Assembly (NCBI RefSeq): GCF_026248825.1
Contig: NZ_CP110973.1
Coordinates: forward strand, 2,111,668 to 2,175,667
Length of the DNA stretch: 64,000 bases
Reading direction: 5' to 3'
Source of the DNA: Larkinella insperata
GTDB lineage: Bacteria; Bacteroidota; Bacteroidia; Cytophagales; Spirosomataceae
Part shown: positions 3,982 through 21,897 of the stretch, piece by piece
Position numbering within the stretch: the first letter of the stretch is position 1
How the letters are laid out: every line of letters begins with the position of its first letter
The notes under the pieces: generated by a model
Told to the model about the DNA's origin: nothing
Databases searched by the model: none
The model's input: only the letters and a program-made list of their open reading frames with translations
Translations under genes and position numbers: made by a program

Positions 3982-3983
3982 GT

Positions 3984-6272: not shown

Positions 6273-6308
6273 GAGAATACAGAAACCGATTTTGTTGACA
6301 ATGAATCA

Positions 6309-6345: not shown

Positions 6346-6495
6346 TTAGAAAAGCGAATAGATAAATGGCGCGAGGGCTGAGCCGGTTGTCATGACGGTC
6401 AATGCGCTCAGCAGCAATAGCAGAATCAGCAGCGGGTAGAGCCAATACCGTTTGCGGGTCCGCATAAAGAGCCAGAACTCGTGTATAAATTCCAT
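6346..6495 (-). CDS. Small membrane protein, DUF5989-like (49 aa); not in the supplied ORF track
   Basis: Reverse-strand ATG at 6495 and TAA at 6346-6348. Translation: MEFIHEFWLFMRTRKRYWLYPLLILLLLLSALTVMTTGSALAPFIYSLF. This matches the conserved MEF..EFW...RKR.WL.P....LLL.....T.GSA.APFIY..F pattern of DUF5989 proteins. It starts 5 nt after the upstream SGNH gene stop. Confidence 0.55.
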   Translation of the reverse strand: MEFIHEFWLFMRTRKRYWLYPLLILLLLLSALTVMTTGSALAPFIYSLF

Positions 6496-6499
6496 CGGG

Positions 6500-8404
6500 T
6501 TACGGTTTAAGGGTTTGAAGCTGGGCTTTCAATTGCAACGCTACCGGATTGCGGGGATCCAGCCGGAGCGATTTGGCGACGTATTTGGCGGCCCCGGCCG
6601 TATTCGCAAATTTCAGGTAACCAGCCGCTAGCTTATTGCTCAGGGCCACGTTTGTGGTGTCGGTCAGGTAGCGGTTTTTGGCCGAAACCAATTGTTCTAC
6701 AAAGGTTTGGAGTTCATTCAGGCTGAACCGGGTTTCGTTGTGAGCGGCTGCGTAACGGAGGTACGGTAGGGCTTCGTCCGGTCGGTCGAGTTTCAGCAGC
6801 GTAATAAACAGGTTCTGCGCCACCCCAAACGTTTCCTCCAACTGGAACGCCTTCTTCAGTAACCAGACCGCCCGCTCCGGCTGATTCAGGCTGAGGGCCA
6901 GTTTCCCGGCCTGCCCGTAAAAAGCCGGATCATGCGGGTACTCCAGCATCAGCGCTTCGGTCACGCGCAAGGCCGCCTGCGGGTTCTGCGTTTTCTGGTA
7001 ATGGGCCAGCAGTTGCTGCATGGCGTCAGGCCACGAAAGTTGCTTCACCACCAGCGCACCGGCCAATTGTTCTTCAGCGGTTTTGGGCCGTTTTTCTTCC
7101 GGCGGCATCGGCTCGTTAAACGGCCAGCCCTCCTTCAAAATGAGCATTTCAAACGCGCCCTTGAGCGAATCCAGCGGTGTAATCGGCATTTGCTGGCGTA
7201 GCTGGGCCAATGAAAGACCATCTTTCCACTCGGCGGCAATCAGTCGCTTCTTTTTCAGGGCTTCGTAAAACGCATCGGAAAGCAGCGCGTACCCATACAG
7301 GTTCGGATGAACGTGTTCCAGCAGAGTTTCCCGGCCCAGAATACCGTTTGGCGATTGCCGCTCGAAAACCGATTTGGTATCTACAACGGTAATGTCCGGA
7401 TACCGGTTTGCCAGCTCCCGAATTACCTGATTCATGGCTTCCGGGGCCCGAAACCGCAGCAAATCCAGTTCCTTGGCCTGCCTAAATCGTTGTTTTGCTT
7501 CAGCGAAGCGGTCGTTGGCATACGCCCGGGTAGCCTCTTCGAACTGGTGCTGAGCCGATACCGTGGTATTGCCCGGTGCACTGACAAACGGTTTTAAATC
7601 TTTCTCGTTGCTGACCAGGTTGCTAATAAAAACCGGAATATGCTTTTCCGAAAATAACCGGCAAAGATCGTTCAGGTTGGTTTCAAACTGCGCAATGCCT
7701 TGCCGATACGTATCCGACCCGTAAGCAATCTGCTGATCGGCAGCCATGCGTTTCATCAGGTTTTCGCGCAAATCCACCTTGCCGCCCGATACAGTTTTAC
7801 GAATACCGCTCAGCGTTTGGTTCAGCAACTGCATGATCCGCAACTCGCGTAGCCTCAGCACCAGCCGCACCAGCGCCGGATGACCGCCCAGCGAACTGGT
7901 AGACCCTACGCCCATAGCGCCGTAATACTCATTATGCCCCGTGTAAACGAGAACGGCATCCGGCTCATAGTCGGGCAGTTGCTGGGCAAAACCAAAAACC
8001 GTGTAGGAGTTAACCGCCGTCAGCGACAGGTTAATGACCTCAAGATTCCGGTCCGGAAAGGTGTGCATCAGCCGGTAGTGCAGCCAGCGGTGGAACGAGC
8101 CGTTGTGGAAATACGGGTAGCCAATCGTTGTCGATTCGCCCAGCACAAAAATGCGGAACGTGCCCTCGGCTTTGCGTTGTCGGAACGGTTCAAAATTGCC
8201 GACGGTGGCGTTATCGGTTTCGGTAAAATACCGTTCCGACGCATGCGGATTCATGATCCAGTACCCCTTGCGTTGCGGGTCCTCGATAAACAGGCGGTAG
8301 TCGTGACCATATCCAGCCAGCCGAAGCAACCCTTCAACCAACAGCAGCAGCAACAGGGGCGAAAGGGCCGCAAGTCCTTTAAACAGCCACAACCGTTTTT
8401 TCAT
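6500..8404 (-). CDS. SGNH/GDSL-like hydrolase with C-terminal TPR repeats
   Basis: 634 aa. N-terminal TM/signal. A GESTT block (FVLGESTTIGYPY) and a later catalytic-like region. The C-terminal ~200 aa are TPR-like (YGQAGKLALSLNQPERAVWLLKKAFQLEE...). Confidence 0.6.
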   Translation of the reverse strand: MKKRLWLFKGLAALSPLLLLLLVEGLLRLAGYGHDYRLFIEDPQRKGYWIMNPHASERYFTETDNATVGNFEPFRQRKAEGTFRIFVLGESTTIGYPYFHNGSFHRWLHYRLMHTFPDRNLEVINLSLTAVNSYTVFGFAQQLPDYEPDAVLVYTGHNEYYGAMGVGSTSSLGGHPALVRLVLRLRELRIMQLLNQTLSGIRKTVSGGKVDLRENLMKRMAADQQIAYGSDTYRQGIAQFETNLNDLCRLFSEKHIPVFISNLVSNEKDLKPFVSAPGNTTVSAQHQFEEATRAYANDRFAEAKQRFRQAKELDLLRFRAPEAMNQVIRELANRYPDITVVDTKSVFERQSPNGILGRETLLEHVHPNLYGYALLSDAFYEALKKKRLIAAEWKDGLSLAQLRQQMPITPLDSLKGAFEMLILKEGWPFNEPMPPEEKRPKTAEEQLAGALVVKQLSWPDAMQQLLAHYQKTQNPQAALRVTEALMLEYPHDPAFYGQAGKLALSLNQPERAVWLLKKAFQLEETFGVAQNLFITLLKLDRPDEALPYLRYAAAHNETRFSLNELQTFVEQLVSAKNRYLTDTTNVALSNKLAAGYLKFANTAGAAKYVAKSLRLDPRNPVALQLKAQLQTLKP

Positions 8405-8416
8405 GGCTAAAACCGT

Positions 8417-9658
8417 TTATCGTTTGGCCGTCAGGTGGTACTGACCAACTTCTTTTCCGTCGTCCAGCAGCATGAGCAGGTGCAAGTCTTTCCGGTCCGC
8501 TTTCAGTTTGATCAGCGTCCGGGTACCGTCTTTCGACCCTCCGCCGATGATGATCGGGTAGTTGTGCTGGCCCGCCACCGGTTCGTGAACGTCGTATTTA
8601 TGCGTGTGGCCGCTAATGCACAAATCGACCTTATGCTTGTTGAACAGGGGCGTAAAAAGTTGCTGGCAATGCATGGGGCCGTGCCAATTGTTGTGGTGAT
8701 GGGTCGGGATGTGCATAAAAACCACCCGGAATTTCGCTTTCCGAAAGGCGGCACTCTGCATAACCTGATCCGCCCAGCGGGACTGTTCCTGCCGATAGGC
8801 GTCAAAATCAACGATGCCCGCGTAGACGGGTTCGCTGTCTGGCTTATCCTCGCCGGTGTCGATTACGGTGAAATGTACCGGTCCCCAGGTGTAGCTGTAA
8901 TACGGTTTGCCTTGCGGATTGGTAAAATACTGGTGGATTTCACCCCGGTATTTGCCGCGCGTTTCGTGGTTGCCCCGAACAAACAGAAACGGTTTTTCCT
9001 GCGCAAAACCGGCTGAACACGGTTTCAGAAGGTGGTCAATCAGTTGCTGCTCATCGGTCTGGTAATCGAAAAGATCACCGTTCAGAAAAACAAAATCGAA
9101 CGGATCGCTTCCCTTCAAACTCAGCAGGTGCGTGATGGTGTCGGGCCGGTCGTGAACGTCGTTCAGCACCAGGCAGCTTACGGTATCGGCCTGTTCATTC
9201 GGGGTCGTAAAGCGGAGCAGACCGCTTTCGATCGTGTTGCCGTAGGTAAGTTTATACGGTTTGAACTCGGTAATTTCTTTGGAAAAAACGCGGTACTGGT
9301 AGGTCGTGCCGGGTTTCAGACCGGTGAGGGTGATTTTATTGATCCGGTTGTAGGCGTCAACCAACCCGTCGGTAACGCTGTGCGCCTTCTGGCCGAGCGA
9401 TTCGCTCTCACCGTATTCAACCCAACTGTAGGAGGGCAGGTTAGCCACCCACATAACCGTCATGGAGCCCGGACCGACGTATTGCAGATACGGTTCGCTC
9501 AGAAAAACGTGTCCTTTGGCCGGGTCGGGCGAACGCAACGACGGATTTTGGGCCAACACCGATGCGGGCAAGACGCTACCCAGCGCCCCCGTTGCGCCAA
9601 GGCCAGCCGCCGATTTGAGAAACGACCGTCGATTGGCGGATTGTTTGGGATTGTTCAT
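8417..9658 (-). CDS. Tat-exported metallophosphoesterase (purple acid phosphatase-like, calcineurin-like phosphoesterase)
   Basis: 413 aa. Twin-arginine signal (SANRRSFLKSAAGLGATGALG). PAP N-terminal Fn3-like domain (GTTYQYRV). Metallophosphatase motifs GDLFD, GNHE, GHTH. Confidence 0.7.
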   Translation of the reverse strand: MNNPKQSANRRSFLKSAAGLGATGALGSVLPASVLAQNPSLRSPDPAKGHVFLSEPYLQYVGPGSMTVMWVANLPSYSWVEYGESESLGQKAHSVTDGLVDAYNRINKITLTGLKPGTTYQYRVFSKEITEFKPYKLTYGNTIESGLLRFTTPNEQADTVSCLVLNDVHDRPDTITHLLSLKGSDPFDFVFLNGDLFDYQTDEQQLIDHLLKPCSAGFAQEKPFLFVRGNHETRGKYRGEIHQYFTNPQGKPYYSYTWGPVHFTVIDTGEDKPDSEPVYAGIVDFDAYRQEQSRWADQVMQSAAFRKAKFRVVFMHIPTHHHNNWHGPMHCQQLFTPLFNKHKVDLCISGHTHKYDVHEPVAGQHNYPIIIGGGSKDGTRTLIKLKADRKDLHLLMLLDDGKEVGQYHLTAKR

Positions 9659-9747
9659 GAGGTAAAAAATGTGGCAGTGGTCTATCGGAAAACGTTTCCG
9701 AATCCGATCAAAATTCGGAAACGTTTTCGGAGCCAGATTGGTCTTTT

Positions 9748-11124
9748 TTACGGCCGGATGATGGTTCCGTCGGCTTTGCGGACCTGCCAGTTTGATTTGG
9801 TCGTGATCGGATATTTGGCCGCTTCCTTCTCGTTGATGTCCACGCCCAGTCCCGGCGCTTCGTTGACCGACATGTAGCCTTTGTTCATCGTCGGGCAGCC
9901 GCTGAACACTTCCTTCATCTTATCCGAAAACTGCACGGCTTCCTGAATACCGAAGTTCCAGACGGCCAGATCGATGTGGGCGTGGGCCGAGTGACCGACC
10001 GGCGATACGTCGCCCGGGCCGTGCCAGGCCGTGCGGATATTGAACCACTCGCCCAGCCGGGCGACTTTCATGGCGGGCGTAATACCGCCAATCTGCGAAA
10101 CGTGAATTCGAATAAAATCGAACCACTGGTTCACCATCGGCTCTTTAAACTCGTTGATGTTGTTGAACAACTCGCCCATCGCAATGGGTACCGAGGTGAC
10201 CTGACGCAACTGCGCGAACCACTTCATGTTTTCGGGCGAGAACGGATCTTCAATGAAGAACGGCCGGTAGTCTTCCAGCTTTTTGATCATATTGATGGCA
10301 TCGATCGGCTGAACGCGCTCGTGAATGTCGTGCAGCAATTCAATCTCCTCACCGCATTGTTTACGAACTACGTCAAACATCTTCGGCACCGATTTGAGGT
10401 AGAGCTGCTCGTTCATGTAATTGTCGGTAGCTCCTCCAAAATTGGCGGCTTTGAAGTCGGGCTGGCTGTTGCTCGCATTGGCCCCCACGGCCCCGTAACC
10501 GCCCTGCTGGATGCGAATGTATTTATAGCCCTGCTCCATGAATTTTTTCACGCTTTCGGCGGCTGCTTCGGGGGTATTACCGCCCGCGTGGGTATAGCAC
10601 GGAATAGCGAACCGGGCTTTTCCACCCAGCAGTTGATACACCGGCATGTTGGCCCGTTTGCCCTTGATGTCCCACAGCGCCTGATCCAGCCCGGAAAGCG
10701 CGTTGTTCAGCACCGGACCGTTGCGCCAGTAGGAGCTGACATAAGCCGCCTGCCACATATCCTCGATGTTGTCCACATCTTTGCCCACACAAAATTCATT
10801 CAGGTACGTATTGATGGCCACAATGACCACGGCCGCCCGTTGCGTAAACGTGGCGCAGCCCAGGCCGTATAAGCCGGGTTCAGTGGTTTCGACTTTGACA
10901 ACAATCAAATTGGAACCCTGCGGAGCGGTGGCAATGGCTTTGACAGACTTGATTTTAACCGGAGCCAGCCCTTTGGCGTACTGGGGAGTTCCCTGCCGTT
11001 CGCGGGCTTCGGCGTTGGAAATACCCCCGAACAAACCCAATAGACCGGCTGACGAGCCAAAGCCTATCTTTTTCAACGTCTCACGACGGCTGTTGAATTC
11101 GGCGGGGTTTTCGATTTCTTTCAT
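9748..11124 (-). CDS. Tat-signal-bearing enolase-superfamily (mandelate racemase/muconate lactonizing enzyme-like) enzyme, possibly an acid-sugar dehydratase
   Basis: 458 aa. Twin-arginine motif SRRETLKKIGFGSSAGLLGLFGG. The N-terminal capping domain (KIKSVKAIATAPQGSNLIVVKVETTEPGLYGLGCATF) and TIM-barrel region are typical of MR/MLE members. Confidence 0.6.
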   Translation of the reverse strand: MKEIENPAEFNSRRETLKKIGFGSSAGLLGLFGGISNAEARERQGTPQYAKGLAPVKIKSVKAIATAPQGSNLIVVKVETTEPGLYGLGCATFTQRAAVVIVAINTYLNEFCVGKDVDNIEDMWQAAYVSSYWRNGPVLNNALSGLDQALWDIKGKRANMPVYQLLGGKARFAIPCYTHAGGNTPEAAAESVKKFMEQGYKYIRIQQGGYGAVGANASNSQPDFKAANFGGATDNYMNEQLYLKSVPKMFDVVRKQCGEEIELLHDIHERVQPIDAINMIKKLEDYRPFFIEDPFSPENMKWFAQLRQVTSVPIAMGELFNNINEFKEPMVNQWFDFIRIHVSQIGGITPAMKVARLGEWFNIRTAWHGPGDVSPVGHSAHAHIDLAVWNFGIQEAVQFSDKMKEVFSGCPTMNKGYMSVNEAPGLGVDINEKEAAKYPITTKSNWQVRKADGTIIRP

Positions 11125-11198
11125 GATTCAGGAATTAAAGGTTTATCAACAAAATGTACCTACAAAAGCATCAAAAGACGTTTCGTTACTGTTGGACT

Positions 11199-13406
11199 TC
11201 ACGGTAGGGCGAAGGCAATGTATGAACCTCCCGGCTTATGACCATTTTTTACGCCACCGGCGGCAATAACGACATACTGTTTACCAGCTACTTCGTAGGT
11301 AATCGGGGTAGCAAACCCGCCCGCCGGAAGCTGGTATTCCCAGACGATTTTGCCCGTTTTTTTGTCGAACGCCCGGATGCGCTCGTCTTTGGTTCCGGCG
11401 ATGAATAGCAGGCCACCCGCCGTAACAATGGGGCCGCCGTAGTTTTCGGTGCCCGTAACCGGAATGCCTTTTTTGGTCAGTTCGGGAAATTCGCCCAGCG
11501 GCACCCGCCAAAGATATTCGCCGGTGTTCAGATCGATGGCGTTGAGCGTGCCCCAGGGTGGCTTGACGGCCGGATAACCGTTCGGGTCGAAAAAGCGGGT
11601 GTAACCGTTGTTGATGTACGGCGGAATGTACGGAAACTCGGTGTTTTTATCGGTTTGAGTCAGAACCGGGGCGTTGTGCTGATCCTGGCTTTCGGCGGGT
11701 TTGGGTTCGGGCGCTTTGGTATCGGCGTTGAGCAAATACCGAATCAGCGTAAAGCGGTCCTGGTCGGAAATGTGCTGGAACGACGGCATTCGGCCCCGGC
11801 CGGATTTCAGCACGGCGTTGATTTCGGGAGCGGAAAGCCGTTTGCCAATATCCACCAGGCTGGGGTACTCCTGCCCGCTGCCCTTGCGGTCGGGGCCGTG
11901 GCAGGCCATGCAGTTCGCCTGGTAGATGGTTTTTCCCTTGGAGGCAATTTCGGCGTTTCGGGTTGCCAGATCCGACATTTTCAGGTCCCAGACCATTTCG
12001 TTGGAGTTCTGGTACAGAATACCGTCCGGGTCCGACGCATTACCCCCCCATTCGGCCCCCCCGCCGATCCCGAAAAACAGCGTTCCTTCCAGACTGGGCG
12101 GCATAAATTTGTCACCGGAGCGCGTCTTCAAAAACCGCTCTTTAACGAATTTGTGCGCTTCGGGCGTCAGGTTCGTAATGTCGGCTTCGGTAAAGACCTG
12201 CCGGGCAAAGGGCGCGGGTTTGATCGGAAATTTCTGCGTGGGCCACGGCACTTCGCCGGGTAGGGCGGGCGAGGTAGGCACCTGGCGTTCTTCCACCGGA
12301 AACAGTGATTCGCCCGTATCGCGGTTCAGCACGTACACCAACCCGTCTTTGGTTGTTTGGGCGACAGCGTCCACCAGGCGGCCGTTGTGCTTCACCGTCA
12401 TCAGGTTGGGCGGGCAGGGAATGTCGCGGTCCCAGAGGTCGTGGTGAATGGTCTGGTAAAACCACTTCATCTTGCCGGTTTCCGCGTCCAGCGCCAAGAT
12501 GCAGTCAGAATACAGATTTTGGCCCGCGCGAATACCGCCGTAAAAATCGACAGATGGGGAGCCGGTTCCAAAATAGACGGTTTTCCGCTTTTCGTCGAGG
12601 ACCATGCCGGCCCAGTTGTTGGCACCCCCGATGCGCTTATAGGCGTCTTTCGGCCAGGTTTCGTAACCCGGTTCGCCCGGTTGCGGAATGGTGTGGAAGA
12701 CCCACAGCACCTTGCCCGTGCGAATGTCGAATCCCCGCACGTGGCCCGGAGCCGCGTCGCCCTGCTCCGAAACCGTCGAGCCCATCACCAGAATGTCCTT
12801 GTAAATCACGCCCGGGGTGGTAGACGTTACGGACACTTTGCTCATGTCCCGCTTCGATTCATCATCCAATCCCTGCCGCAAATCCACTTCGCCGTTTTTG
12901 CCAAACGAGGCCACGGGTTCGCCCGTGAGGGCGTTCAGGGCATAAAGCGTTGAACCAGCCGTATACAGGATGCGTTTGTCTGCCCCGTTTTCCCAGTACA
13001 TGACGCCCCGGCTCTGGTTGAAGCGCGGAGATTTGTCTTTGAACGGATTGAAAATCCAGCGTTGCTGGCCGGTTGCCGCATCCAGCGCAAATACCTTCAG
13101 CATGGGCGTGGTGCCGTACAGCATACCATTGATGACGATGGGCTGGCACTGGATTTCGAGTTGCTGACCGGATGGCCCGTCTGCTCCGGCGGCATTATAC
13201 GACCAGGCCACTTTCAGGTTTTTGACGTTTTGGAGATTGATCTGCTTGAGGGACGAATAACGGTTTCCGGCCTGATTACCCCCGTAAGCCGGCCAGTTTC
13301 GTCCGCCCGGCTGATCCCGAACGCCCGTTCCCGGCAGGGGAGCGATGGACGAACTGCTTCCCATCAGGAGCCACAGCCCGACTACGATTGGTTGCGCATA
13401 TTTCAT
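11199..13406 (-). CDS. PQQ-dependent beta-propeller dehydrogenase with an internal c-type cytochrome domain (quinohaemoprotein)
   Basis: 735 aa with a signal peptide. PQQ propeller repeats sit at both ends (NLKVAWSY... and ...GKIVWEYQLPAGGFATPITYEVAGKQYVVIAAGG). A CxxCH haem-binding motif (CMACH, residues 499-503) lies in an about 80-aa cytochrome c-like insert before the last blades. Confidence 0.7.
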   Translation of the reverse strand: MKYAQPIVVGLWLLMGSSSSIAPLPGTGVRDQPGGRNWPAYGGNQAGNRYSSLKQINLQNVKNLKVAWSYNAAGADGPSGQQLEIQCQPIVINGMLYGTTPMLKVFALDAATGQQRWIFNPFKDKSPRFNQSRGVMYWENGADKRILYTAGSTLYALNALTGEPVASFGKNGEVDLRQGLDDESKRDMSKVSVTSTTPGVIYKDILVMGSTVSEQGDAAPGHVRGFDIRTGKVLWVFHTIPQPGEPGYETWPKDAYKRIGGANNWAGMVLDEKRKTVYFGTGSPSVDFYGGIRAGQNLYSDCILALDAETGKMKWFYQTIHHDLWDRDIPCPPNLMTVKHNGRLVDAVAQTTKDGLVYVLNRDTGESLFPVEERQVPTSPALPGEVPWPTQKFPIKPAPFARQVFTEADITNLTPEAHKFVKERFLKTRSGDKFMPPSLEGTLFFGIGGGAEWGGNASDPDGILYQNSNEMVWDLKMSDLATRNAEIASKGKTIYQANCMACHGPDRKGSGQEYPSLVDIGKRLSAPEINAVLKSGRGRMPSFQHISDQDRFTLIRYLLNADTKAPEPKPAESQDQHNAPVLTQTDKNTEFPYIPPYINNGYTRFFDPNGYPAVKPPWGTLNAIDLNTGEYLWRVPLGEFPELTKKGIPVTGTENYGGPIVTAGGLLFIAGTKDERIRAFDKKTGKIVWEYQLPAGGFATPITYEVAGKQYVVIAAGGVKNGHKPGGSYIAFALP

Positions 13407-13445
13407 GGTTGTTTACTGAAGAATTGAAAAGGGTTTAGGAACGGT

Positions 13446-14432
13446 TTACTTGACGGATGCGGTTTTGGGCAGCTGGTAAAATTCGTACGAGATCGTCCAC
13501 CGAAACGTCTGGCCCGGCCCGGCGTTGACCTGGATGTAGGGTTCGGGGCACACCGTGGTGGGGATGGACCAGAACGCCAGTTGAACAATCGGTTTGTCGC
13601 CCACAACCCGGACGCCCGACCCGCTGCTGCGGTTTTCAACGCGGAAGTCGTAGTCTTTGGCCGAGTCGCCGAAACCGGTCAGGTAGCAGTGCGTGCTTTC
13701 ACCTTTGGGAAGTTCTTTCAGGTAGACAAAACGGTTTTCCTGAATGTCGGCCAGCGTACCGATGCCGCGCGTGGGTTTGACCTGAAGCGGGAAGGGAAAC
13801 GTAACCGATACATCCGGCCCGGTGGGCTGGTGGTCCATCACAAAAAAGTTGTGGTTATACACCGTCGTCGCGATGGGTTTCTGCCCGGTGTTTTTCAGGC
13901 TGTGCTCCAGCGTCAGAACGGGTTTGCCTTTGAGCAGCTTGACGGTTTTCTGGTAATGATAGGAATAGCCAGCGGCATCAGTCAGCGCGTGGGTGAAAAC
14001 CACGGCGTCACGCCGGGTTTCGACGGTCCACGTTCCGGGGTTAACAAGGGCGTACGGCGCGGCAAATCGGTACGGCATGTCTTTGACTTTGCGTAGCGAA
14101 CCCACCCCAATTTTCAAAAACTCGTCGCCCGGTTTGGCTTCTTCGTACCCGATGGGCGTAAATTCTTCGACGGGGCCGCTGATGGCGTCGTGCAGTTTCG
14201 GGTCGTATTTCTCGAACCACTGACCGAAATACGAATGGTCCTTGTAATTCAGGCTGGCCAGCACGCCCGACCAGTCGAACCGGACGCCCTGATAGTATCC
14301 GTTGGCCGAGTCGGGGAGGTAGAGTTTGGCGCGAAGAATGCCGTTGGAAATTTCGACTTCCGGGAAGGGCGGTTTCAGCGTTGTGCTTACCAAGCCAATC
14401 AGTACACCAACAAAAAGGACTATTTTTTTCAT
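13446..14432 (-). CDS. Secreted hypothetical protein (beta-rich, about 300 aa mature)
   Basis: 328 aa. Signal peptide MKKIVLFVGVLIGLVSTTL. I recognise no motif. It sits between SusD and the PQQ dehydrogenase with 13-40 nt spacers, so it is probably co-transcribed. Confidence 0.5.
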   Translation of the reverse strand: MKKIVLFVGVLIGLVSTTLKPPFPEVEISNGILRAKLYLPDSANGYYQGVRFDWSGVLASLNYKDHSYFGQWFEKYDPKLHDAISGPVEEFTPIGYEEAKPGDEFLKIGVGSLRKVKDMPYRFAAPYALVNPGTWTVETRRDAVVFTHALTDAAGYSYHYQKTVKLLKGKPVLTLEHSLKNTGQKPIATTVYNHNFFVMDHQPTGPDVSVTFPFPLQVKPTRGIGTLADIQENRFVYLKELPKGESTHCYLTGFGDSAKDYDFRVENRSSGSGVRVVGDKPIVQLAFWSIPTTVCPEPYIQVNAGPGQTFRWTISYEFYQLPKTASVK

Positions 14433-14518: not shown

Positions 14519-16264
14519 CTAATACCCGGGATTTTGCTTCATGCTTGTGTTGGAGTTGATCTCGTCAATGGGGATCGGCTGGGCGTAATCGGTGGCTTCC
14601 CACTGAATGGTTCCGCCCCGAACCCGTTGGTAATAAGCGGCTTCCTGCGGACCCAGCTGCCAGCGTCGCACGTCGATCCACCAATGGCCTTCGCCAAATA
14701 ATTCGGCCCAGCGTTCGTATTTGAGCGGGTCGTTCTTCAGGACCGGATCAGGCGCTTTCGTAACGTCGGTCAGGCTTTTGTAATCCACCGGCGATGCTCC
14801 GTTGACCGGATACCCGTAGGCCCGTCGTTTGACCTTGTTGATATATTCCAGCGCCGTGGCGTTGTCGCCGGTCTTGGTGAGCGTTTCCGCATAAAGCAGG
14901 TAAACGTCGGCCAGCCGCAGGAGCAGAATGTTATTGCCGTTGGCCATGTTGACCTCGGTTTCCGTCGCGTCGAGGGTCAGGTATTTGCGGAAACTCCAGG
15001 CTTCCATGTCCATTTCACTGATGTCGAGGAAGTGTGAAAGAGGCCGTTTGCGGGTGCTGACCACCATGCTATCCACGTACGGCTGCCAGCAGGACACCCA
15101 TAAACGGGGGTCAACGGTTTTGGCCTGACGGGCCTGGAGCGAGCGGGTAACGTAGGCCGGATCAACGTTGGTGGCCAGTGGCTGCGTAGTACCGGCTTTG
15201 AAATAGTGGCCTTCGTTGAAACCGAAGCGGGCGATGTTTTTAGCGTGCGGAAACACGTTTGACCAGGCCGAAGCCGCGGGCAGGTTGTTGTCGCCCACGT
15301 AGGTCGGAGCCAGCACCATACCCATGCTCGAACCCGTGGACGTTTCCGTGTTGCCGCGCGCGGTCATGTCCACGTTCAGGTTCATTTCCACCAGCGATTC
15401 CGAGTTGAACTCGTTTTTGCCGTTGAACATATCCTTATAAACATCAAACGAAACGAGCGATTTGCCGCTGTTGTTGATCACGTCGGCCAGCGAAGTTTTG
15501 GCGTTGTTCCAGTCCTGCGTATACACGTAGGCTTTGCCCAGCGCGGCTTTGACGCCCCACCCGCTGATCTTGTGTTTTTCGTTGGCGCCCGGCCAGGTTT
15601 TTCCGGCCAGCAGGGTTTCGGCCGCTTTCAGATCGCTGATGATGAAGTCCCAGACTTCCTTGACCGTGGCCCGCGGCACCTGCGTCTGGTCAAGGCTCGT
15701 GGCCGCTTCGGTAACGATCGGCACGCCCATCTTGTCACCGCCTTGGTTGTTGATGATGAACGATTCGCCCCAGATCGTGATCAGGTACTGATAATACCAG
15801 GCCCGCAGAAACAGCGCCTGCCCTTTGATCAGGTCGAGGGATTTTTTATCAGCTTCCAGGGTAACTTTCGGACGGATTTTTTCAATGTTGACCAGCAGCG
15901 TATTGGCCCGTTGGACGCCCTTCCAGGTATCGCGCCAGGTTTCCGACAGAAAGCCGTCGTTGGGTTGTGAGTTGTTCTGCGCCAGTTGAATCCAGGTTGG
16001 CGTGCCCTGCCAGCTCAGGTCGGCGGTGTGATCCCACATGTAGTAGCCTTTGCCGTAGATGTTGTGCCCGAACAGGCCCGCCGAGTGCTGCGTGCCGTAT
16101 ACGCCCGTCAGCAACTGCTCCAGGTCCGTGAGGGTATTCGGGTAGTTGTTGGTCGACAAGGCCCCGGGGTTGGTTACGTCAATGAAATCTTCCTTACAAC
16201 CCGCCAAACTGATCAGGGTTAGAAAGAAGGTTAGTTTGAGAAATGACTTCATGGTATGAAACAT
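14519..16264 (-). CDS. SusD/RagB-family outer-membrane lipoprotein
   Basis: 581 aa. Lipobox LISLAGCKEDF; the start is possibly the internal Met at 16252. SusD-like TPR N-terminus. Lies directly after a SusC gene. Confidence 0.8.
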   Translation of the reverse strand: MFHTMKSFLKLTFFLTLISLAGCKEDFIDVTNPGALSTNNYPNTLTDLEQLLTGVYGTQHSAGLFGHNIYGKGYYMWDHTADLSWQGTPTWIQLAQNNSQPNDGFLSETWRDTWKGVQRANTLLVNIEKIRPKVTLEADKKSLDLIKGQALFLRAWYYQYLITIWGESFIINNQGGDKMGVPIVTEAATSLDQTQVPRATVKEVWDFIISDLKAAETLLAGKTWPGANEKHKISGWGVKAALGKAYVYTQDWNNAKTSLADVINNSGKSLVSFDVYKDMFNGKNEFNSESLVEMNLNVDMTARGNTETSTGSSMGMVLAPTYVGDNNLPAASAWSNVFPHAKNIARFGFNEGHYFKAGTTQPLATNVDPAYVTRSLQARQAKTVDPRLWVSCWQPYVDSMVVSTRKRPLSHFLDISEMDMEAWSFRKYLTLDATETEVNMANGNNILLLRLADVYLLYAETLTKTGDNATALEYINKVKRRAYGYPVNGASPVDYKSLTDVTKAPDPVLKNDPLKYERWAELFGEGHWWIDVRRWQLGPQEAAYYQRVRGGTIQWEATDYAQPIPIDEINSNTSMKQNPGY

Positions 16265-16292
16265 CGTTTTTCAACGGGTTAAGGTCTGGTGA

Positions 16293-19200
16293 TTAGAAAC
16301 TGGCGTCGATGCCCAGCGACATCAGCGTGGTGCGCGGGTAGGAATAAATCGCATCGATACCGCGGCCGGTGGTGCCATTGCGTCCGAGTACTTCGGGGTC
16401 CATGCCGGTGTAGTTCGTCAACGTCATCAGGTTCTGGCCCTGCACGTAAATGCGGATGCTGCTCATCTTGATTTTGCTCGTTACGGCATTCGGGATGGTG
16501 TAGCCAACCTGCAAGTTGCGCAGTTTCAGGAAAGAACCGTTTTCAACGTAGTAATCGGAAATCCGGGTGTAGTTGGAGTTCGGGTCGCGGACGTAGTTGC
16601 CGGATGCATCCGTATACCCAACGCGCGGACGATCGGTCAGCCCGTTGCCGTTGAAGAACGATGTCTTGAAAATGTCGCCCGTGGTGTTGTAATCGCCCAC
16701 GAAAAACTGGGTGTAATACCGGTTGGCGTTATATACATCCACCCCCTGAACACCCTGCAACAGCGCCGACAGGTCGAAACCTTTCCAGCCCAGATTCAGC
16801 GTCAAACCGTAGGTCATTTTGGGCCAGGGATTACCAACGTAGGTTTTGTCGTCAATTGTAATCCGGCCGTCGCCGTTGATGTCCCGGAAGCGCAAATCAC
16901 CCGCCCCCGTTCCGGCGTTCTGGTAAAAAACACCCGTGGTGGGTCTTCCGGCGGCTGCGGCTTTTTCCTGCGCCTGCTGGTTGAGGGTCGCTACTTCCGC
17001 GTCGCTTTGGAAAATACCGTCGGTGACATAGCCGTAAAACTGACTCAGCGGGTAACCGGCCTGCGTGCGGGCAATGGTGCTTTCCAGGTAATCACCGCCC
17101 GCGCCGTCGTTAATCGGGTTGTTGTTGGTACCGCTCAACTGCTTCACCAGGTTCTTGTTGAAAGCGGCATTGGCGGCAATGCTGTAGGTGAAACCGCCTT
17201 TTTTACCCCGGTAATCGACGGCCAGTTCAAGCCCCTTGTTGCTCATCTGACCGATGTTCGTGTACACGCGGGAACCCGAAAAACCGGCTGAATTGGGGAC
17301 CGGCACCTGATAAATCATGTCCTCGGTCTGGCGGCTGTACCAGTCGATAACCAGGTTCAACTGGTTGTTGAACAGGCCTATGTCGGCGCCTATGTCGGTC
17401 TGTTTAACTTCCTCCCACTTGATGTTTTCGTTGGGCAACTGCGCCGTCAGCGCATACCCTTTGGCGCGGTTTCCATCCGGCAAGCCGTGGATGTTTGTGC
17501 CGCCTGTTCCGCCGTAGGATGCCTGATACGTAAATTGCGGAATGTTGCTGGTGCTGCCCAGTTTTCCGTAGCTGGCCCGCAGTTTCAGCGTTGACAGCAC
17601 CGGGATATCCCGCATGAATGCTTCGTCGGTCACGCGCCAGCCCACCGAGAAAGACGGAAAGACGCCCCAGCGGTTGGCCGGACCGAAGCGGTCGGAACCG
17701 TCGCGCCGGACGTTGGCCGTCAGCAGGTATTTTCCGGCGTAGGTGTAGTTGATCCGGCCAAACTGCGACAACAGCCGGGTCTGCGGGTATTCGCCCCCAC
17801 TGGCGCGGTACGTGCTCGGGTCGGTGCTCAATCCCAGGTTGTACGTAATAATCTGGAAGCCCTGCGCTTCGGCGTAGAGGTTGCTGAGGTCCTGCTGAAA
17901 CGCTTCGTAACCGGCCATCGCCTTGAACTCGTGCTGACCAATGGTTTTGTCGTACGTCAGCACGAAGTTGGCGGTCAGGTTGCGCTGGCTGGTTTGCTCC
18001 CGGCTTAAATACGCGATCGGGTTTCTGACCACCCCAAAATCGTGGGATTCCCGGAAGGTATAATTCCGCCCGCTATAGATCGACGCTCCGAAAGTTGAGC
18101 GCAGATTCAGGCCCTTGGTGATTTCCCAATCGGCGTAAATGTTGCCTTCCAGCGCGTATTGGTCGTTCAGACGGTGGTGAATATTTTCCCAGCCCACCAG
18201 GTTGGGGCCGGTAAAAAACGAACCGGTTTTGGCCCAGCCACCATACGGGTTTGTTTCGTCCCGAAGGGCGACCAGTGGGGCCGAACGAAAGGGGAACGTC
18301 GTATTTTGTGCGGGGTTGGTGCTGGTTTTCCAGGCAAACAACGTTTCACCCACCTTAAACCGTTTGTTGATTCTAAAATCCGCGTTGGAGCGCAGTCCGT
18401 AGCGTTCGAACGAGTTGTCGATGATGGTGCCGTCTTCGCGCTGGTAGTTGGCCGAGAGGTAATAATTGGCCTTGGCCGATGCACCCGCCAGCGAAAGCGA
18501 ATAGCTCTGCTCTTTGCCGTTCCGGAAAATTTCGTCCACCCAATCGGTGTTTGGCAGGCTGGCCGGGTCGCCCCAGCCGTTGGTATTGACGCCCGATGCT
18601 TTTTTGGCCGTAATGTAATCCGTCGTATTCAGCATCTGGTAGAGGTTCCGGGGTTGCCGAACACCATAATAGGCATTGAAGTTGATGTTCATTTTGTCCA
18701 TGCCGCCCCCCCGTTTGGTGGTAACCAGTACAACCCCTCCGGCTGCCTGCGCGCCGTAAATGGCGGCTGCGCTGGCGTCTTTCAGCACTTCAATGGATTC
18801 GACATCCTGAAGGTTGAAGTTGTTGCCCGCGCCCATCCGGATACCGTCGACGATGTACAGCGGAGCCATCCCGCCAATGGAGCCAACGCCCCGGATGACG
18901 ATGTCGGAGCCACCACCCGGCGTTCCGTCCGGACGGGTTACCTGTACCCCGGCGGCCCGGCCCTGTAAGGCTTCGTTGACGCTGCGAACCGGCAGGTTCT
19001 TTACTTCGGCGGCTTTGACCGACGAAACCGATCCCGTTAAGTCCGACCGTTTCTGCGTACCGTAACCGACCACAACCACTTCGCTGAGGTTTTTGGTATC
19101 AGTCACCAGACTCACGTTAATCTCCGTGCGGTTATCAACGGCAATTTCCTGTGACGTATAGCCGACAAAGCTAAATACCAGAATGGCGTCGCCGGTCTGC

Positions 19201-19742
19201 AAGGTCATTTTATACTGGCCGTTGCCGTCTGTGGTGGTACCGCGCGTGGTTCCTTTGACGACCACGCTCACCCCCGGCAGCCGGCCACCGGTTTCGTCGG
19301 AAACCGTTCCGGTGATGGTCTGATCGACGGGGGCCGCGTCGGTTCGGCGGAGAATCTCTTCGGGAGAGGGGAGTGGGCGGGGTTCCAGGTTCAGGATAAT
19401 CTGCCGGCCTTTCACCTGGTAGTTCAGGTCCAGTGGTTTCAGGAGTTTATCCAGAATTTCGCTCAGGGGCTGATTGGCCGCATTAAACGTCACCCGCTGG
19501 TTCAGCTGGACCAGGGATGAACGGTAGGCAAAGCGAACATCGGTCTGTTTGCCCAACTGGTTCAGGACGGTTCTCACGGGCAGGTTTGTCACCTGAATCG
19601 TCACGCGCTGATCCATGATTCGCTGCGCTTCCACCGGGCGGGCCAGGGCCAGTCCGGTGAAGATCGCTGCCAGGAGTAACTGGTAGAAAGTCAATTTCAT
19701 AAAGCTACGCAACAGGCTAAGCGGTTGTCGAAGTTTTTCCAT
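16293..19742 (-). CDS. SusC/RagA-family TonB-dependent transporter with an N-terminal STN signalling domain (trans-envelope signalling type)
   Basis: 1149 aa. STN domain (VTIQVTNLPVRTVLNQLGKQTDVRFAYRSS), a carboxypeptidase-regulatory-like domain, a TonB-box/plug, and a 22-strand barrel with a C-terminal aromatic residue (F). Confidence 0.85.
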   Translation of the reverse strand: MEKLRQPLSLLRSFMKLTFYQLLLAAIFTGLALARPVEAQRIMDQRVTIQVTNLPVRTVLNQLGKQTDVRFAYRSSLVQLNQRVTFNAANQPLSEILDKLLKPLDLNYQVKGRQIILNLEPRPLPSPEEILRRTDAAPVDQTITGTVSDETGGRLPGVSVVVKGTTRGTTTDGNGQYKMTLQTGDAILVFSFVGYTSQEIAVDNRTEINVSLVTDTKNLSEVVVVGYGTQKRSDLTGSVSSVKAAEVKNLPVRSVNEALQGRAAGVQVTRPDGTPGGGSDIVIRGVGSIGGMAPLYIVDGIRMGAGNNFNLQDVESIEVLKDASAAAIYGAQAAGGVVLVTTKRGGGMDKMNINFNAYYGVRQPRNLYQMLNTTDYITAKKASGVNTNGWGDPASLPNTDWVDEIFRNGKEQSYSLSLAGASAKANYYLSANYQREDGTIIDNSFERYGLRSNADFRINKRFKVGETLFAWKTSTNPAQNTTFPFRSAPLVALRDETNPYGGWAKTGSFFTGPNLVGWENIHHRLNDQYALEGNIYADWEITKGLNLRSTFGASIYSGRNYTFRESHDFGVVRNPIAYLSREQTSQRNLTANFVLTYDKTIGQHEFKAMAGYEAFQQDLSNLYAEAQGFQIITYNLGLSTDPSTYRASGGEYPQTRLLSQFGRINYTYAGKYLLTANVRRDGSDRFGPANRWGVFPSFSVGWRVTDEAFMRDIPVLSTLKLRASYGKLGSTSNIPQFTYQASYGGTGGTNIHGLPDGNRAKGYALTAQLPNENIKWEEVKQTDIGADIGLFNNQLNLVIDWYSRQTEDMIYQVPVPNSAGFSGSRVYTNIGQMSNKGLELAVDYRGKKGGFTYSIAANAAFNKNLVKQLSGTNNNPINDGAGGDYLESTIARTQAGYPLSQFYGYVTDGIFQSDAEVATLNQQAQEKAAAAGRPTTGVFYQNAGTGAGDLRFRDINGDGRITIDDKTYVGNPWPKMTYGLTLNLGWKGFDLSALLQGVQGVDVYNANRYYTQFFVGDYNTTGDIFKTSFFNGNGLTDRPRVGYTDASGNYVRDPNSNYTRISDYYVENGSFLKLRNLQVGYTIPNAVTSKIKMSSIRIYVQGQNLMTLTNYTGMDPEVLGRNGTTGRGIDAIYSYPRTTLMSLGIDASF

Positions 19743-19954
19743 ACTTTTGGTTGTTTTTTGGCTGTTTGAGGTTTCGAATGGACAAAAGATTCCCTCATCA
19801 TCCCGGCACAGGTTGATTAGAAAAGGGATTTGTCAGGTCAATGATGCTGGTACCATCATTGACCTTTTCTGCTAAGAAGGGATTTGTAAATCAAATCATA
19901 GGCAACAGGGTTAAGCTAGATGGAGTATATAGGGGTTTAGGAATAGTTCAGCGT

Positions 19955-21088
19955 TTACTGACAGCCTTTGCTGGTGATGACGATCTGCCCGTCCAGTACT
20001 TCGTACGACGCACCTATGGTCTGGCAGATTACCTCCAGGCGTTCCATCAAATTCTCTTCGTTAAACGTCACGTTCACCAGACAGGCCGCCAGCGCTTCTT
20101 CGTCGAAGAGCAGTTTGACGCCGTAAGTCCGCTCCAGACTCGAGAAAACCCGGGCCACCGACGCATCTTCGAATACCTGCTCCCGACTCGGCCGGTTGGC
20201 GACCAGGGCCGCGGGTTTTTCAACCAGTGCCTTTACAAGCCGATTTTCTGCCAGGTTATAGGTCATCTGCTGATTGGGGGTCAGCACCACACCCTCAACG
20301 CGACGGACCCCGCTCTGCTGGGCCTTCTCGTAATCTTTCTGCGAGTAAACCGACACCCGCCCCGTTTTTACCATCACCGTTACTTCTTTTTCCCGGCAAT
20401 AAGCCCGAACTAAAAAGCTGGTACCGAGCACTTTCGTGACGGTTTGGTTGGCGTAAATCAGAAACGGTTTAGCCGGATTTTTCACCACGTCGAAAAAGGC
20501 TTCGCCATTGAGGTAAACCGTCCGGGAAAGGGCATCAAACCGGACTGGATAGCTTATCCGGCTTTTGGGGTTCAGGGTTACCACGCTGCCGTCGCTCAGC
20601 AAAATGTTCATTGGTTTAGGGCTGGTGTTGACCTTTTCCTGGAGCGGTATAGTAGCGACCGTTCGGGTTAAGTATTCGTACGAGCCCACTGCTGGTTTGG
20701 GCGTCCGGCCCAGGTAGAACCAGGTGCTGAAAGCCGCCACCAGCAGAACCGACGCGGCCACGGCCCCGCGCCACCAACTCCGCTGCCCCAGCGGAATAAC
20801 CGGGTGTTCGGTGTCTTCTTCCTGTTCGGCTTCCCGGCGTTCGGCGGCTTTGGCAATGAGCTTATTCAGTTCGAGCGCGATCCGGTTGTCGGTGGCATCA
20901 TCCCGATAGTGGTTATCCAGGGCACGGATCAACTCCTGTGCCTGCCGGACCACCTCGGCACGATCCGGATTCTGGGCCAGCCACTGTTCCCAAAAATGGG
21001 CTGCCTGAGGGGAAGTGCCCGCGGTCCACTGTCGGAACGATTCATCAAACAGAAAGTCTTCCGCTTCGTACGTTCTGTAATTAATCAT
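19955..21088 (-). CDS. FecR-family anti-sigma factor (transmembrane)
   Basis: 377 aa. N-terminal cytoplasmic anti-sigma region, a single TM helix (WWRGAVAASVLLVAAFSTWFYL) and a periplasmic FecR domain. Flanked by an ECF sigma gene and an STN-SusC gene. Confidence 0.8.
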   Translation of the reverse strand: MINYRTYEAEDFLFDESFRQWTAGTSPQAAHFWEQWLAQNPDRAEVVRQAQELIRALDNHYRDDATDNRIALELNKLIAKAAERREAEQEEDTEHPVIPLGQRSWWRGAVAASVLLVAAFSTWFYLGRTPKPAVGSYEYLTRTVATIPLQEKVNTSPKPMNILLSDGSVVTLNPKSRISYPVRFDALSRTVYLNGEAFFDVVKNPAKPFLIYANQTVTKVLGTSFLVRAYCREKEVTVMVKTGRVSVYSQKDYEKAQQSGVRRVEGVVLTPNQQMTYNLAENRLVKALVEKPAALVANRPSREQVFEDASVARVFSSLERTYGVKLLFDEEALAACLVNVTFNEENLMERLEVICQTIGASYEVLDGQIVITSKGCQ

Positions 21089-21288
21089 TGAGCAAATTGA
21101 ATCTAGGACTTCTACTTACTTAGTGTCGAATTTTGAGAATTGATACTCAGAAAAAGTAAAATTATTTTCTGGTAAAATTCAATTGTTGCTAACTGTCGCT
21201 GGGCCAATCGTTTAGCAGGCTGGTTGATAGAGCATGAAAATGTCGGGGCGAATTGAGGGCATCCGGCAGGGTAGGAAGTGCTGGCTGA

Positions 21289-21897
21289 TTACAGGGACCG
21301 CATCAAGACCAGCAAGGCCAGCAAAAGACTGGCCGACCACTGGCTGCGGAGTTCTTTGAAGGTGCGGTAGAGCAGATTGGCAACGCTTTGCCGCTCCAGG
21401 CCCATGATCTGGGCAATTTCGTGATTATCCAGATTCTGGTAAAAACGCAGATACAGAACTTCCTGCTGACGTTTAGAGAGCGACGCCATCAATTGGTGCA
21501 GCAAGCGGGTTTGTTCGGTATGGCTTTCGTCATCGATGATCTGTTGTTCAATGGAATCGGAGAACGGCAATTGAGTCGCTGCGGGTTCGTCGAGGTGAAT
21601 GGAAGGCGACTGCGGCAGGATTTTCAATAATTTGTAGCGCAGTGCTTTCAGCAGGTAGGCTTTTACAAAGACCGCATCCCCCACGGTCTGGCGGTGGTCC
21701 CACAAGTCCACGAGCAAATCCTGAATCGCATCCCAAATCAGTTCAGAATCCGCCGTAAGCCGCAGGCCGTAGTTGTATAGGCTACGGTAGTGCACCTGGG
21801 CCAGTGCGCCGAAAGCCAGTTCATCACCTGCTTTAAAGCGCTGCCAGAGCTCCTGGGGGGCAAGGGTTTTATAATCAGCGGCTGTAATGCGTTCCAA
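21289..21897 (-). CDS. ECF-type RNA polymerase sigma-70 family factor
   Basis: 202 aa. Sigma-70 region 2 (YRSLYNYGLRLTADSELIWDAIQDLLVDLW) and region 4 (RQQEVLYLRFYQNLDNHEIAQIMGLERQSVANLLYRTFKELR). Confidence 0.8.
   Translation of the reverse strand: MERITAADYKTLAPQELWQRFKAGDELAFGALAQVHYRSLYNYGLRLTADSELIWDAIQDLLVDLWDHRQTVGDAVFVKAYLLKALRYKLLKILPQSPSIHLDEPAATQLPFSDSIEQQIIDDESHTEQTRLLHQLMASLSKRQQEVLYLRFYQNLDNHEIAQIMGLERQSVANLLYRTFKELRSQWSASLLLALLVLMRSL

Follow-up and report, generated by a model that had tools for sequence, protein, structure and literature searches.

Introduction

Among the described systems of Bacteroidota, those closest to the present locus in their regulatory design are the polysaccharide utilization loci (PULs) controlled by an extracytoplasmic function (ECF) sigma factor and its anti-sigma factor, of which the host-glycan PULs of Bacteroides thetaiotaomicron are examples. 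In these loci the sigma factor, a FecR-type anti-sigma factor, an STN-domain SusC and SusD follow one another, and periplasmic or surface enzymes are encoded downstream in one operon. The locus examined in this study lies in a 64,000-nucleotide stretch of the Larkinella insperata genome (Cytophagales; contig NZ_CP110973.1, positions 2,111,668 to 2,175,667 of the forward strand), which is referred to as the window throughout. It has the same gene order and likewise carries enzymes downstream, but its cargo consists of a quinohaemoprotein dehydrogenase, a dehydratase with a signal for twin-arginine (Tat) export, a mutarotase-fold protein and an SGNH esterase, without any glycoside hydrolase (GH) or polysaccharide lyase (PL). 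On balance, we lean towards reading it as a mosaic SusC/SusD operon that would import a possibly esterified sugar, remove its ester groups, oxidize it at C1 with a respiratory quinohaemoprotein and dehydrate the product while it is still in the periplasm.

Two published concepts come nearest to this reading, the trapping of sugars in the periplasm as sugar acids and the De Ley-Doudoroff pathway. According to Thomas 2017, as cited in PMC12076931, enzymes of the pyrroloquinoline quinone (PQQ) glucose dehydrogenase branch convert neutral sugars into sugar acids outside the cytoplasm and deliver the electrons to the respiratory chain, a 'periplasmic trapping' that precedes transport. The De Ley-Doudoroff pathway and the dgo operon (DgoD, DgoK, DgoA and DgoT), as summarized in the same paper (PMC12076931), lead from an aldose to the aldonate and on to the 2-keto-3-deoxy-aldonate, which is handled by a kinase and an aldolase. 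A further point of comparison is the sxtI-sxtJ-sxtK-sxtL block of the cyanobacterial saxitoxin clusters, which encodes a carbamoyltransferase of ~600 aa, an SxtJ-family membrane protein of ~130 aa, a ~50-aa peptide and a GDSL/SGNH hydrolase (PMC2679770, PMC2684587). No description of a system like that of Larkinella was found in the literature searched, an absence that is not in itself proof.

Organization of the Locus

The cluster comprises ten co-directional open reading frames (ORFs) on the minus strand between 6346 and 21897 of the window, with each assignment supported by the evidence shown in Table 1. The gene list, the coordinates and the common direction of the initial annotation were all recovered, except that it had counted eleven genes where there are ten. 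Since the susC-like and susD-like genes are adjacent on one strand, with a gap of 28 nt, the locus is a PUL in the sense of PULDB. It would not count as a glycan-degrading PUL in the functional sense, for which a GH or PL has to be encoded in the operon, as searches of all ten proteins with Pfam and NCBIfam recognized no domain of either kind. The earlier description of a sigma/anti-sigma/STN-SusC/SusD unit devoid of GH and PL genes was thus upheld.

The gene set for trans-envelope signalling of the FecI/FecR/FecA type (ECF sigma factor, FecR anti-sigma factor and STN transporter) is complete. A single transmembrane segment is predicted in the anti-sigma factor at about residues 105-125, and the SusC protein contains STN (PF07660, residues 70-117, 50 bits), CarboxypepD_reg, Plug and barrel domains. 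A role of the SusC/SusD pair as importer of the PQQ cofactor itself was judged unlikely, because orthologous pairs occur without any PQQ enzyme.

From the sigma factor to the DUF5989 gene, the intergenic gaps are 200, 212, 28, 86, 39, 74, 89, 12 and 4 nt. A hairpin scan of the locus revealed no strong internal hairpin from susC to DUF5989; the sole strong hairpin is located directly 3' of the DUF5989 stop codon and is common to both convergent operons. The palindrome upstream of susC, AGGTCAATGATG-N7-CATCATTGACCT, is maintained in five Larkinella genomes and in Spirosoma validum with one compensatory change from A-U to G-C, and it is a candidate operator, leader hairpin or terminator of the sigma/anti-sigma unit. 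The same gene order was observed in four further Larkinella genomes and in S. validum, indicating that the arrangement is not due to chance. The GC content of the cluster is similar to that of its surroundings. No tRNA genes were detected in the window and no Rfam families in positions 1-34000, while a scan for sigma-70 promoters gave results at chance level with a model that is ill-suited to Bacteroidota promoters.

Table 1. Features of the Larkinella insperata locus and of the adjoining convergent PUL (positions in the window).
Feature	Position	Strand	Evidence or remarks
ECF-type sigma-70 factor, 202 aa, TTG start	21289..21897	-	Sigma70_r2, r4_2; TIGR02937, 66.6 bits (cutoff 42.9)
FecR-type anti-sigma factor, 377 aa	19955..21088	-	PF04773 FecR, E 1.3e-15; PF16344 FecR_C, E 1.3e-11
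SusC/RagA TonB-dependent transporter, 1149 aa	16293..19742	-	TIGR04056, 893 bits (cutoff 368)
SusD-family lipoprotein, 581 aa, lipobox ...LAGC	14519..16264	-	PF07980 and PF14322
Secreted protein with galactose-mutarotase (aldose 1-epimerase) fold, 328 aa	13446..14432	-	Fold comparison; no Pfam family
Predicted soluble periplasmic PQQ eight-bladed propeller dehydrogenase with class-I cytochrome c, 735 aa	11199..13406	-	PF01011 and PF13442
Tat-signal ManD-subgroup enolase-superfamily dehydratase, 458 aa	9748..11124	-	MR_MLE_N and MR_MLE_C (PF02746, PF13378)
Tat-exported metallophosphoesterase with purple-acid-phosphatase N-terminal domain, 413 aa	8417..9658	-	PF16656, PF00149, TIGR01409
Membrane-anchored SGNH hydrolase with C-terminal TPR domain, 634 aa	6500..8404	-	Position of SxtL in sxt clusters
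DUF5989 single-pass membrane peptide, 49 aa	6346..6495	-	PF19451, E 8.6e-23; position of SxtK
Perfect 12-bp palindrome	19835..19865	no strand	~100 nt upstream of susC; fold -19 kcal/mol, z -4.2
18-bp hairpin, probable bidirectional terminator	6307..6348	no strand	-30.1 kcal/mol, z -7.3
Convergent PUL	1..6272	+	
SusC C-terminus (convergent PUL)	169..795	+	
SusD (convergent PUL)	815..2293	+	
'Glycoamylase', GH144-type (convergent PUL)	2341..3981	+	PF10091
GH3 (convergent PUL)	3978..6272	+	

The Oxidative Module

Between the SusD gene and the SGNH hydrolase lie three genes predicted to encode the mutarotase-fold protein, the PQQ/haem-c dehydrogenase and the Tat-exported ManD-type dehydratase, which together make up what is called module B below. 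The dehydrogenase matches PF01011 with 624.7 bits, over residues 38-484 and in a second stretch past a cytochrome c insert. Its score against TIGR03074 (glucose/quinate/shikimate, 468.8 bits) is higher than that against TIGR03075 (alcohol, 266 bits), the former being below the cutoff of 832.65 with a match that begins at profile position 150. The cytochrome c domain is not C-terminal but sits inside the propeller at residues 488-558 of 735, with the CMACH motif at residue 499. The inserted-cytochrome architecture is common to homologues in Rhodocytophaga, Spirosoma, Adhaeribacter, Catalinimonas and Siphonobacter, and six homologues were found to have a single CxxCH and no vicinal Cys-Cys (CC dipeptide). 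The protein carries a Sec-type signal peptide, as expected for periplasmic haem attachment, and no N-terminal multi-helix membrane anchor.

The enzyme belongs to the same propeller branch (glucose/quinate/shikimate) as the membrane-bound PQQ glucose dehydrogenase, but it is predicted to be soluble, having the inserted cytochrome c instead of an N-terminal membrane anchor of 5 helices. It also differs in being tied to a SusC/SusD importer and in being followed by a predicted periplasmic dehydratase, rather than by immediate transport or oxidation to ketogluconate. The type II quinohaemoprotein alcohol dehydrogenases (PDB 1kb0, 1yiq and 1kv9) likewise combine a soluble PQQ propeller with a class-I cytochrome c, and these three gave the best PDB sequence matches (E ~1e-38, covering the N-terminal half only). 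However, the Larkinella protein falls outside that type, since its cytochrome c is inserted and not C-terminal, vicinal Cys-Cys is absent, the glucose-family score exceeds the alcohol-family score and the latter (266) is below the TIGR03075 cutoff of 480.

An assembly artefact as the origin of the PQQ-cytochrome architecture was ruled out by the six like-built homologues and by the Larkinella arboricola orthologue, with which the window ORF is collinear at 94% identity with zero gaps. The 328-aa protein matches GCA_042679125.1, contig JBHTLP010000019.1, exactly. In the GenBank record, an N and a duplicated 30-nt flank occur at the propeller/cytochrome c junction (window 11938-11968; ~12490-12520 of locus L001), owing to which the GenBank annotation calls a PQQ fragment of 196 aa; the window sequence encodes the intact 735 aa.

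The next enzyme is a probable aldonate dehydratase. It is ~58-60% identical to PDB 3t6c, 4ihc and 3tw9 (E 1e-137 to 1e-139) and has a catalytic core of the same length. The motifs YWRNGPV, HDxHER, F(I/L)EDP and MGELF, expected from solved members to hold the metal-ligand and acid/base residues, are identical in the alignments with 3t6c and 4ihc. Unlike these solved members of the ManD subgroup, the Larkinella protein has a twin-arginine extension, by which it is predicted to be periplasmic, and its gene is found together with those for SusC/SusD, the PQQ enzyme and the mutarotase-fold protein. The extension is N-terminal, comprises ~50 residues and contains an RR motif, a hydrophobic region and an AxA site. 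Tat export of this enzyme had been proposed in the initial annotation; the RR signal is kept in 22 homologues from at least six genera, which speaks for it, while Pfam detected no Tat signal in the protein. Both the Sec signal of the haem protein and the Tat signal of the ManD-like protein would fit a location in the periplasm.

The 328-aa protein gave no match in Pfam, NCBIfam or PDB, whether searched as a single sequence or as a 33-member profile, and fold comparison, the one method giving an answer, assigned to it a stand-alone mutarotase beta-sandwich fold. Three of the 33 relatives match PF01263 with a best E-value of 0.076, and the window protein does not match it. Residues H66, H177, H194 (YNHNFF), D260 and E297 (CPEPY) are invariant and, as read from the sequences, follow the order expected of the His/His/Asp/Glu catalytic set of aldose 1-epimerases, for which they are candidates. 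More than 6,000 matches to the family were obtained, in Bacteroidota, Acidobacteriota and Verrucomicrobiota.

Sister Loci of the Oxidative Module

A survey of 80 genome loci found via the mutarotase-fold protein was carried out with thresholds of at least 55% identity for the PQQ/cytochrome c gene and at least 60% for the ManD-like gene. The PQQ/cytochrome c gene is present in 16 of the 80 loci, with the mutarotase-fold gene immediately upstream in every one (16/16). Among these 16 loci, 12 contain a ManD-like gene, two of the four exceptions having truncated flanks, and 15 contain a SusC-like gene. DgoK (PF05035, 2-keto-3-deoxygalactonate kinase) together with a KDPG/KDPGal-type aldolase (PF01081) was found in 10, and all nine of those 10 that have enough downstream sequence also carry a major facilitator superfamily (MFS) transporter, whose best match is the D-galactonate transporter TIGR00893, below the cutoff. 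In Spirosoma, Dyadobacter and Fibrisoma the oxidative module is located directly beside a Tat-signal galactonate dehydratase, a kinase, an aldolase and an aldonate-type MFS transporter, and Spirosoma linguale has a true DgoD (NF010624, 443 bits, cutoff 311), likewise with an RR signal.

Other sister loci extend this repertoire. One has a secreted 7-bladed lactonase between the ManD-like and mutarotase-fold genes, together with a second Tat-signal MR_MLE enzyme; Adhaeribacter aquaticus harbours four similar RR-signal UxuA-type ORFs, two of which were confirmed as UxuA by Pfam; and in a Bacteroidales metagenome-assembled genome a further UxuA-type enzyme with a signal is clustered with the mutarotase-fold protein. 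The recurrence of signal-bearing sugar-acid enzymes near the mutarotase-fold gene suggests a broad periplasmic sugar-acid metabolism in Bacteroidota. The loci with DgoD, DgoK, aldolase and MFS transporter, with the lactonase or with UxuA enzymes point to a periplasmic order of aldose, lactone, aldonate and 2-keto-3-deoxy-aldonate, and those with the dgo-type genes or the lactonase strongly reinforce the earlier proposal that oxidation is followed by dehydration in the periplasm, with a sugar-acid intermediate.

The stretches with signal-bearing sugar-acid enzymes beside the mutarotase-fold gene are 4081-5328 in L003, 4441-9439 in L034, 8809-9969 in L046 and 3544-9523 in L060.

The SGNH/DUF5989 Module and the Phosphoesterase

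The SusC, SusD, SGNH-TPR and DUF5989 genes on either side of the oxidative module, together called module A here, have a distribution of their own. Orthologue identities across genera are 63-76% for SusC, 66-74% for SusD and 55-70% for the SGNH protein. In Adhaeribacter radiodurans, Dyadobacter pollutisoli, Catalinimonas, Siphonobacter and S. validum, the SGNH-TPR orthologues always lie downstream of the orthologous SusC/SusD pair, and this order holds with or without oxidative genes in between. The full block seen elsewhere in Bacteroidota is SGNH-SxtJ-DUF5989-carbamoyltransferase (NodU/CmcH-type), in many cases directly downstream of SusC/SusD; the four genes occupy 8001-12342 in L085, 8001-12270 in L087 and 10001-14214 in L088. 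In a metagenomic survey of the SGNH module (80 loci, L091-L170), the carbamoyltransferase is downstream in 33 of the 55 loci with enough downstream sequence, and SusC/SusD-like genes are directly upstream in 26 of the 46 with enough upstream sequence. Some distant metagenomic loci hold the module among GH92, GH95, GH127 and GH3 genes, which argues for a PUL accessory and not a substitute for GHs.

Searches with tblastn found neither the carbamoyltransferase nor an SxtJ-family gene in the window or in any of the Larkinella loci. The Larkinella DUF5989 peptide is 80% identical to the Adhaeribacter copy, which sits between SxtJ and the carbamoyltransferase. On these sequence comparisons, module A at this locus is a reduced form of SusC-SusD-SGNH-SxtJ-DUF5989-carbamoyltransferase, from which Larkinella appears to have lost SxtJ and the carbamoyltransferase. 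The SGNH and DUF5989 genes, taken by the initial annotation as parts of one cargo, belong to this separate and widespread module. Module B stands beside module A in at least four gene orders (L087, L088, L093, L153, L160 and L121), and adjacency in differing orders argues for functional coupling rather than shared descent.

The SGNH-TPR protein has an N-terminal hydrophobic anchor, SGNH blocks I, III and V and a flavodoxin-like fold; its catalytic blocks are invariant among homologues, and in fold it is about as similar to carbohydrate acetyl-esterases as to O-acetyltransferases. Related Bacteroidota loci contain the same four-gene set as sxtI-sxtJ-sxtK-sxtL, with similar sizes, but the Bacteroidota module is attached to SusC/SusD importers and not to toxin biosynthesis. 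The Larkinella window retains just the SGNH hydrolase and the small peptide, and the hydrolase is longer than its sxt counterpart, with the membrane anchor and the TPR domain. The likeness of DUF5989 to SxtK is one of position and size (49 vs 54 aa) only.

As a separate observation, several metagenomic PULs encode, upstream of their SGNH module, a conserved secreted protein of ~850 aa whose beta-propeller repeats are Kelch/NanM-like (7365-9941 in L121, 2431-4986 in L124 and 2531-5062 in L113).

The phosphatase-like protein scores 44.8 bits against PF16656, 68.9 bits against PF00149 and 19.0 bits against TIGR01409 (cutoff 16.7), and its sole PDB match is weak (1xzw, E 8e-4). Of the motifs that carry the seven metal ligands of purple acid phosphatases, among them the tyrosine of GDxxY, inspection by eye showed GNHE, VxxH and GHxH, with NDVHD as the first motif and GDLFDY as the second. 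The gene occurs in just three related loci, all from Larkinella. Its homologues, with identities of 56-75%, have a wide distribution, and both of those looked up, in Tellurirhabdus and Chitinophaga, stand alone in unrelated contexts. It is best seen as a recent lineage-specific insertion or passenger. With so narrow a distribution, dephosphorylation would not be a conserved step, and its inclusion in the cargo pathway by the initial annotation is not supported. More generally, comparative genomics dissolves the one coherent eleven-gene cargo proposed there into a mosaic of two modules and an insertion.

Surroundings of the Locus

The convergent PUL is conventional in its gene content, which is typical of beta-1,2-glucan utilization, and it ends 74 nt from the DUF5989 stop codon; GH activity is therefore encoded nearby, outside the operon. 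In four other Larkinella loci a GH144-like gene adjoins DUF5989, with no GH3 match within their flanks. On the other side, the cluster is bordered by TamB and an Omp85-family gene.

Further along the window, an RtcB ligase with a long N-terminal extension (its Pfam match starts from residue 146) and a Band-7/SPFH protein are encoded on the minus strand within 29846-34206, opposite a divergent regulator with WYL/WCX domains at 33100-34206. In the stretch 34465-52000 the GC content falls from ~0.55 to 0.45-0.49. An acquired island was ruled out for this stretch (34-52 kb), as it holds highly expressed core genes, including fusA, the ribosomal-protein operons, secY and rpoA. A protein with an HGSNAT-type membrane acetyltransferase domain is encoded at 53917-55113, and a hybrid sensor of 983 aa (7TMR-DISM, HisKA, HATPase, receiver and AraC HTH) on the minus strand at 55407-58358.

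Discussion

The model that we propose, and hold with moderate confidence, predicts functions from what the analysis established directly, namely which genes are present, their domains and folds, the types of their export signals and the statistics of synteny. A substrate bound by SusD/SusC would cause the STN domain to signal to FecR, freeing the sigma factor in the manner of its family. The imported substrate would be a sugar or small oligosaccharide, possibly O-acylated, from which the periplasm-facing SGNH enzyme would strip the ester groups. The fold and strict adjacency of the mutarotase-fold protein suggest that it provides the anomer used by the dehydrogenase. The PQQ propeller would then oxidize C1 to the aldonolactone, as its family predicts, and the electrons would reach the respiratory chain by way of the haem-c domain of the enzyme itself. 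The lactone would open spontaneously or by a lactonase encoded elsewhere, and the ManD-type enzyme would convert the aldonate, of the gluconate or mannonate type, to the 2-keto-3-deoxy-aldonate while still in the periplasm. An MFS transporter, a kinase and an aldolase outside the window could finish a De Ley-Doudoroff or semi-phosphorylative Entner-Doudoroff-like route.

The logic of aldose, aldonate, 2-keto-3-deoxy-aldonate and then kinase and aldolase is that of the De Ley-Doudoroff pathway and the dgo operon, and in sister loci DgoD, DgoK, the KDPG/KDPGal-type aldolase and a DgoT-like MFS transporter lie beside the PQQ and mutarotase-fold genes. The Larkinella route would differ in that oxidation and dehydration would both take place in the periplasm, the dehydrogenase depends on PQQ and haem c instead of NAD(P), the dehydratase is of the ManD subgroup and not DgoD, and the kinase, aldolase and transporter are absent from the window.

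Several observations weigh against this model. No lactonase, inner-membrane transporter, kinase or aldolase was found in the 64-kb window; the De Ley-Doudoroff kinase and KDPGal aldolase are present in 10 of the sister loci. The ManD-like protein is below the curated cutoffs of both NF043051 (ManD, 399.6 vs 550) and NF011654 (galactonate dehydratase, 390.5 vs 430), and its nearest solved relatives are low-efficiency gluconate/mannonate dehydratases with unclear physiological substrates. The mutarotase assignment comes from the fold without a matching sequence profile, and many glycosidases contain the mutarotase fold as a domain that takes no part in catalysis. The usual cargo of SusC/SusD systems is oligosaccharides, and no enzyme of the operon is able to cleave one. 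The model does not explain the retention of the DUF5989 peptide without SxtJ and the carbamoyltransferase. Finally, L085 and L086 have module A but lack module B, and module B is also found together with a SusC/SusD pair that is not orthologous (33% and 26% identity), so the two modules may act on different substrates.

This last point leads to an alternative that we consider unlikely, in which the SusC/SusD-SGNH/DUF5989 genes, the oxidative trio and the phosphoesterase are independent units that are merely co-directional and share no common substrate. Each of them does occur alone: module A in the two loci just named, module B with another SusC/SusD pair and dgo genes in 10 loci, and the phosphoesterase in Tellurirhabdus and Chitinophaga. 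In other genera, moreover, gaps of 125-227 nt precede the SGNH gene. Gaps of 4-89 nt run from susC to DUF5989 in the window, with no strong internal hairpin, and module B adjoins module A in at least 10 loci in several orders, all of which is difficult to reconcile with independence; nor do the oxidative genes have a regulator or outer-membrane transporter of their own at this locus.

An equally unlikely alternative makes the oxidative operon the downstream half of a glycan system. The convergent PUL would free glucose from a beta-glucan in the periplasm, the PQQ enzyme and the ManD-type (gluconate) dehydratase would consume it, and the second SusC/SusD pair would import the same or a related glycan. 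The closeness of the SusD, PF10091 (GH144-type) and GH3 genes at 815-6272 to the DUF5989 stop, and the GH144-like neighbour in four other Larkinella loci, would agree with this, as would a PQQ domain nearest the glucose-dehydrogenase branch and a dehydratase similar to 3t6c, 4ihc and 3tw9, the closest solved relatives reportedly having been crystallized with gluconate. However, the adjacency is confined to Larkinella, and the loci of Siphonobacter, Catalinimonas and S. validum and the metagenomic loci, which share the modules, have no GH144/GH3 neighbours. The two units are also convergent and separately regulated, the neighbour having no sigma/anti-sigma pair in the window, and the DgoD and DgoK of the sister loci indicate galactonate and not glucose alone.

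Much less probable is a non-carbohydrate substrate or a role in nutrient mobilization, either by quinate, shikimate or alcohol oxidation or by gluconic acid and a phosphatase for phosphate solubilization. TIGR03074 also includes quinate and shikimate dehydrogenases, a phosphoesterase lies within the operon, FecR/ECF systems classically serve metal uptake, and PQQ glucose dehydrogenases underlie mineral-phosphate solubilization in soil bacteria. Yet an aldonate dehydratase would use up the acid instead of releasing it, the phosphoesterase is missing from most orthologous loci, and enolase-superfamily dehydratases require a carboxylate with adjacent hydroxyls; the DgoD, DgoK, aldolase, lactonase and UxuA-type enzymes of the sister loci all belong to sugar-acid catabolism. 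Least probable of all is a conventional PUL with a glycan-cleaving enzyme hidden in the 328-aa or the SGNH-TPR protein, an outcome that the initial annotation had named as refuting its view, because the former has a stand-alone mutarotase fold and is not a GH, the latter is an SGNH esterase-type protein, an esterase leaves glycosidic bonds uncut and the Pfam and NCBIfam searches detected no catalytic domain of a GH or PL among the ten proteins.

A wider reading, which we put forward tentatively and with less confidence than the model for the Larkinella locus itself, is that Cytophagia and Sphingobacteriia run the entire upper oxidative sugar catabolism in the periplasm, fed by SusC/SusD, and that SGNH-SxtJ-DUF5989-carbamoyltransferase, as the ancestor of sxtIJKL, is a conserved SusC/SusD accessory. 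The periplasmic steps may comprise mutarotation, oxidation by PQQ/haem-c enzymes, lactone opening and dehydration by Tat-exported ManD-, DgoD- and UxuA-type enzymes. The SGNH block may act on the O-carbamoyl or O-acyl groups of carbohydrates that are taken up or exported, possibly by relaying such groups across the membrane.

If the proposed pathway is true, it would mean a GH-independent, respiration-coupled use of sugars, in which some SusC/SusD loci feed a respiratory periplasmic sugar-acid pathway instead of glycoside hydrolases, and the CAZyme-free predicted PULs of soil and freshwater Bacteroidota would need to be reread. To our knowledge, ManD, DgoD and UxuA dehydratases are not known to act in the periplasm, and acid-sugar dehydratases of all three families would then be active there, giving the enolase-superfamily and UxuA dehydratases a new cellular location and the ManD-subgroup enzymes with weak in vitro activities a physiological context. 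The SusC/SusD-SGNH-SxtJ-DUF5989-carbamoyltransferase unit would in turn provide a context other than toxin biosynthesis in which ideas about the unexplained genes sxtJ and sxtK can be tested.

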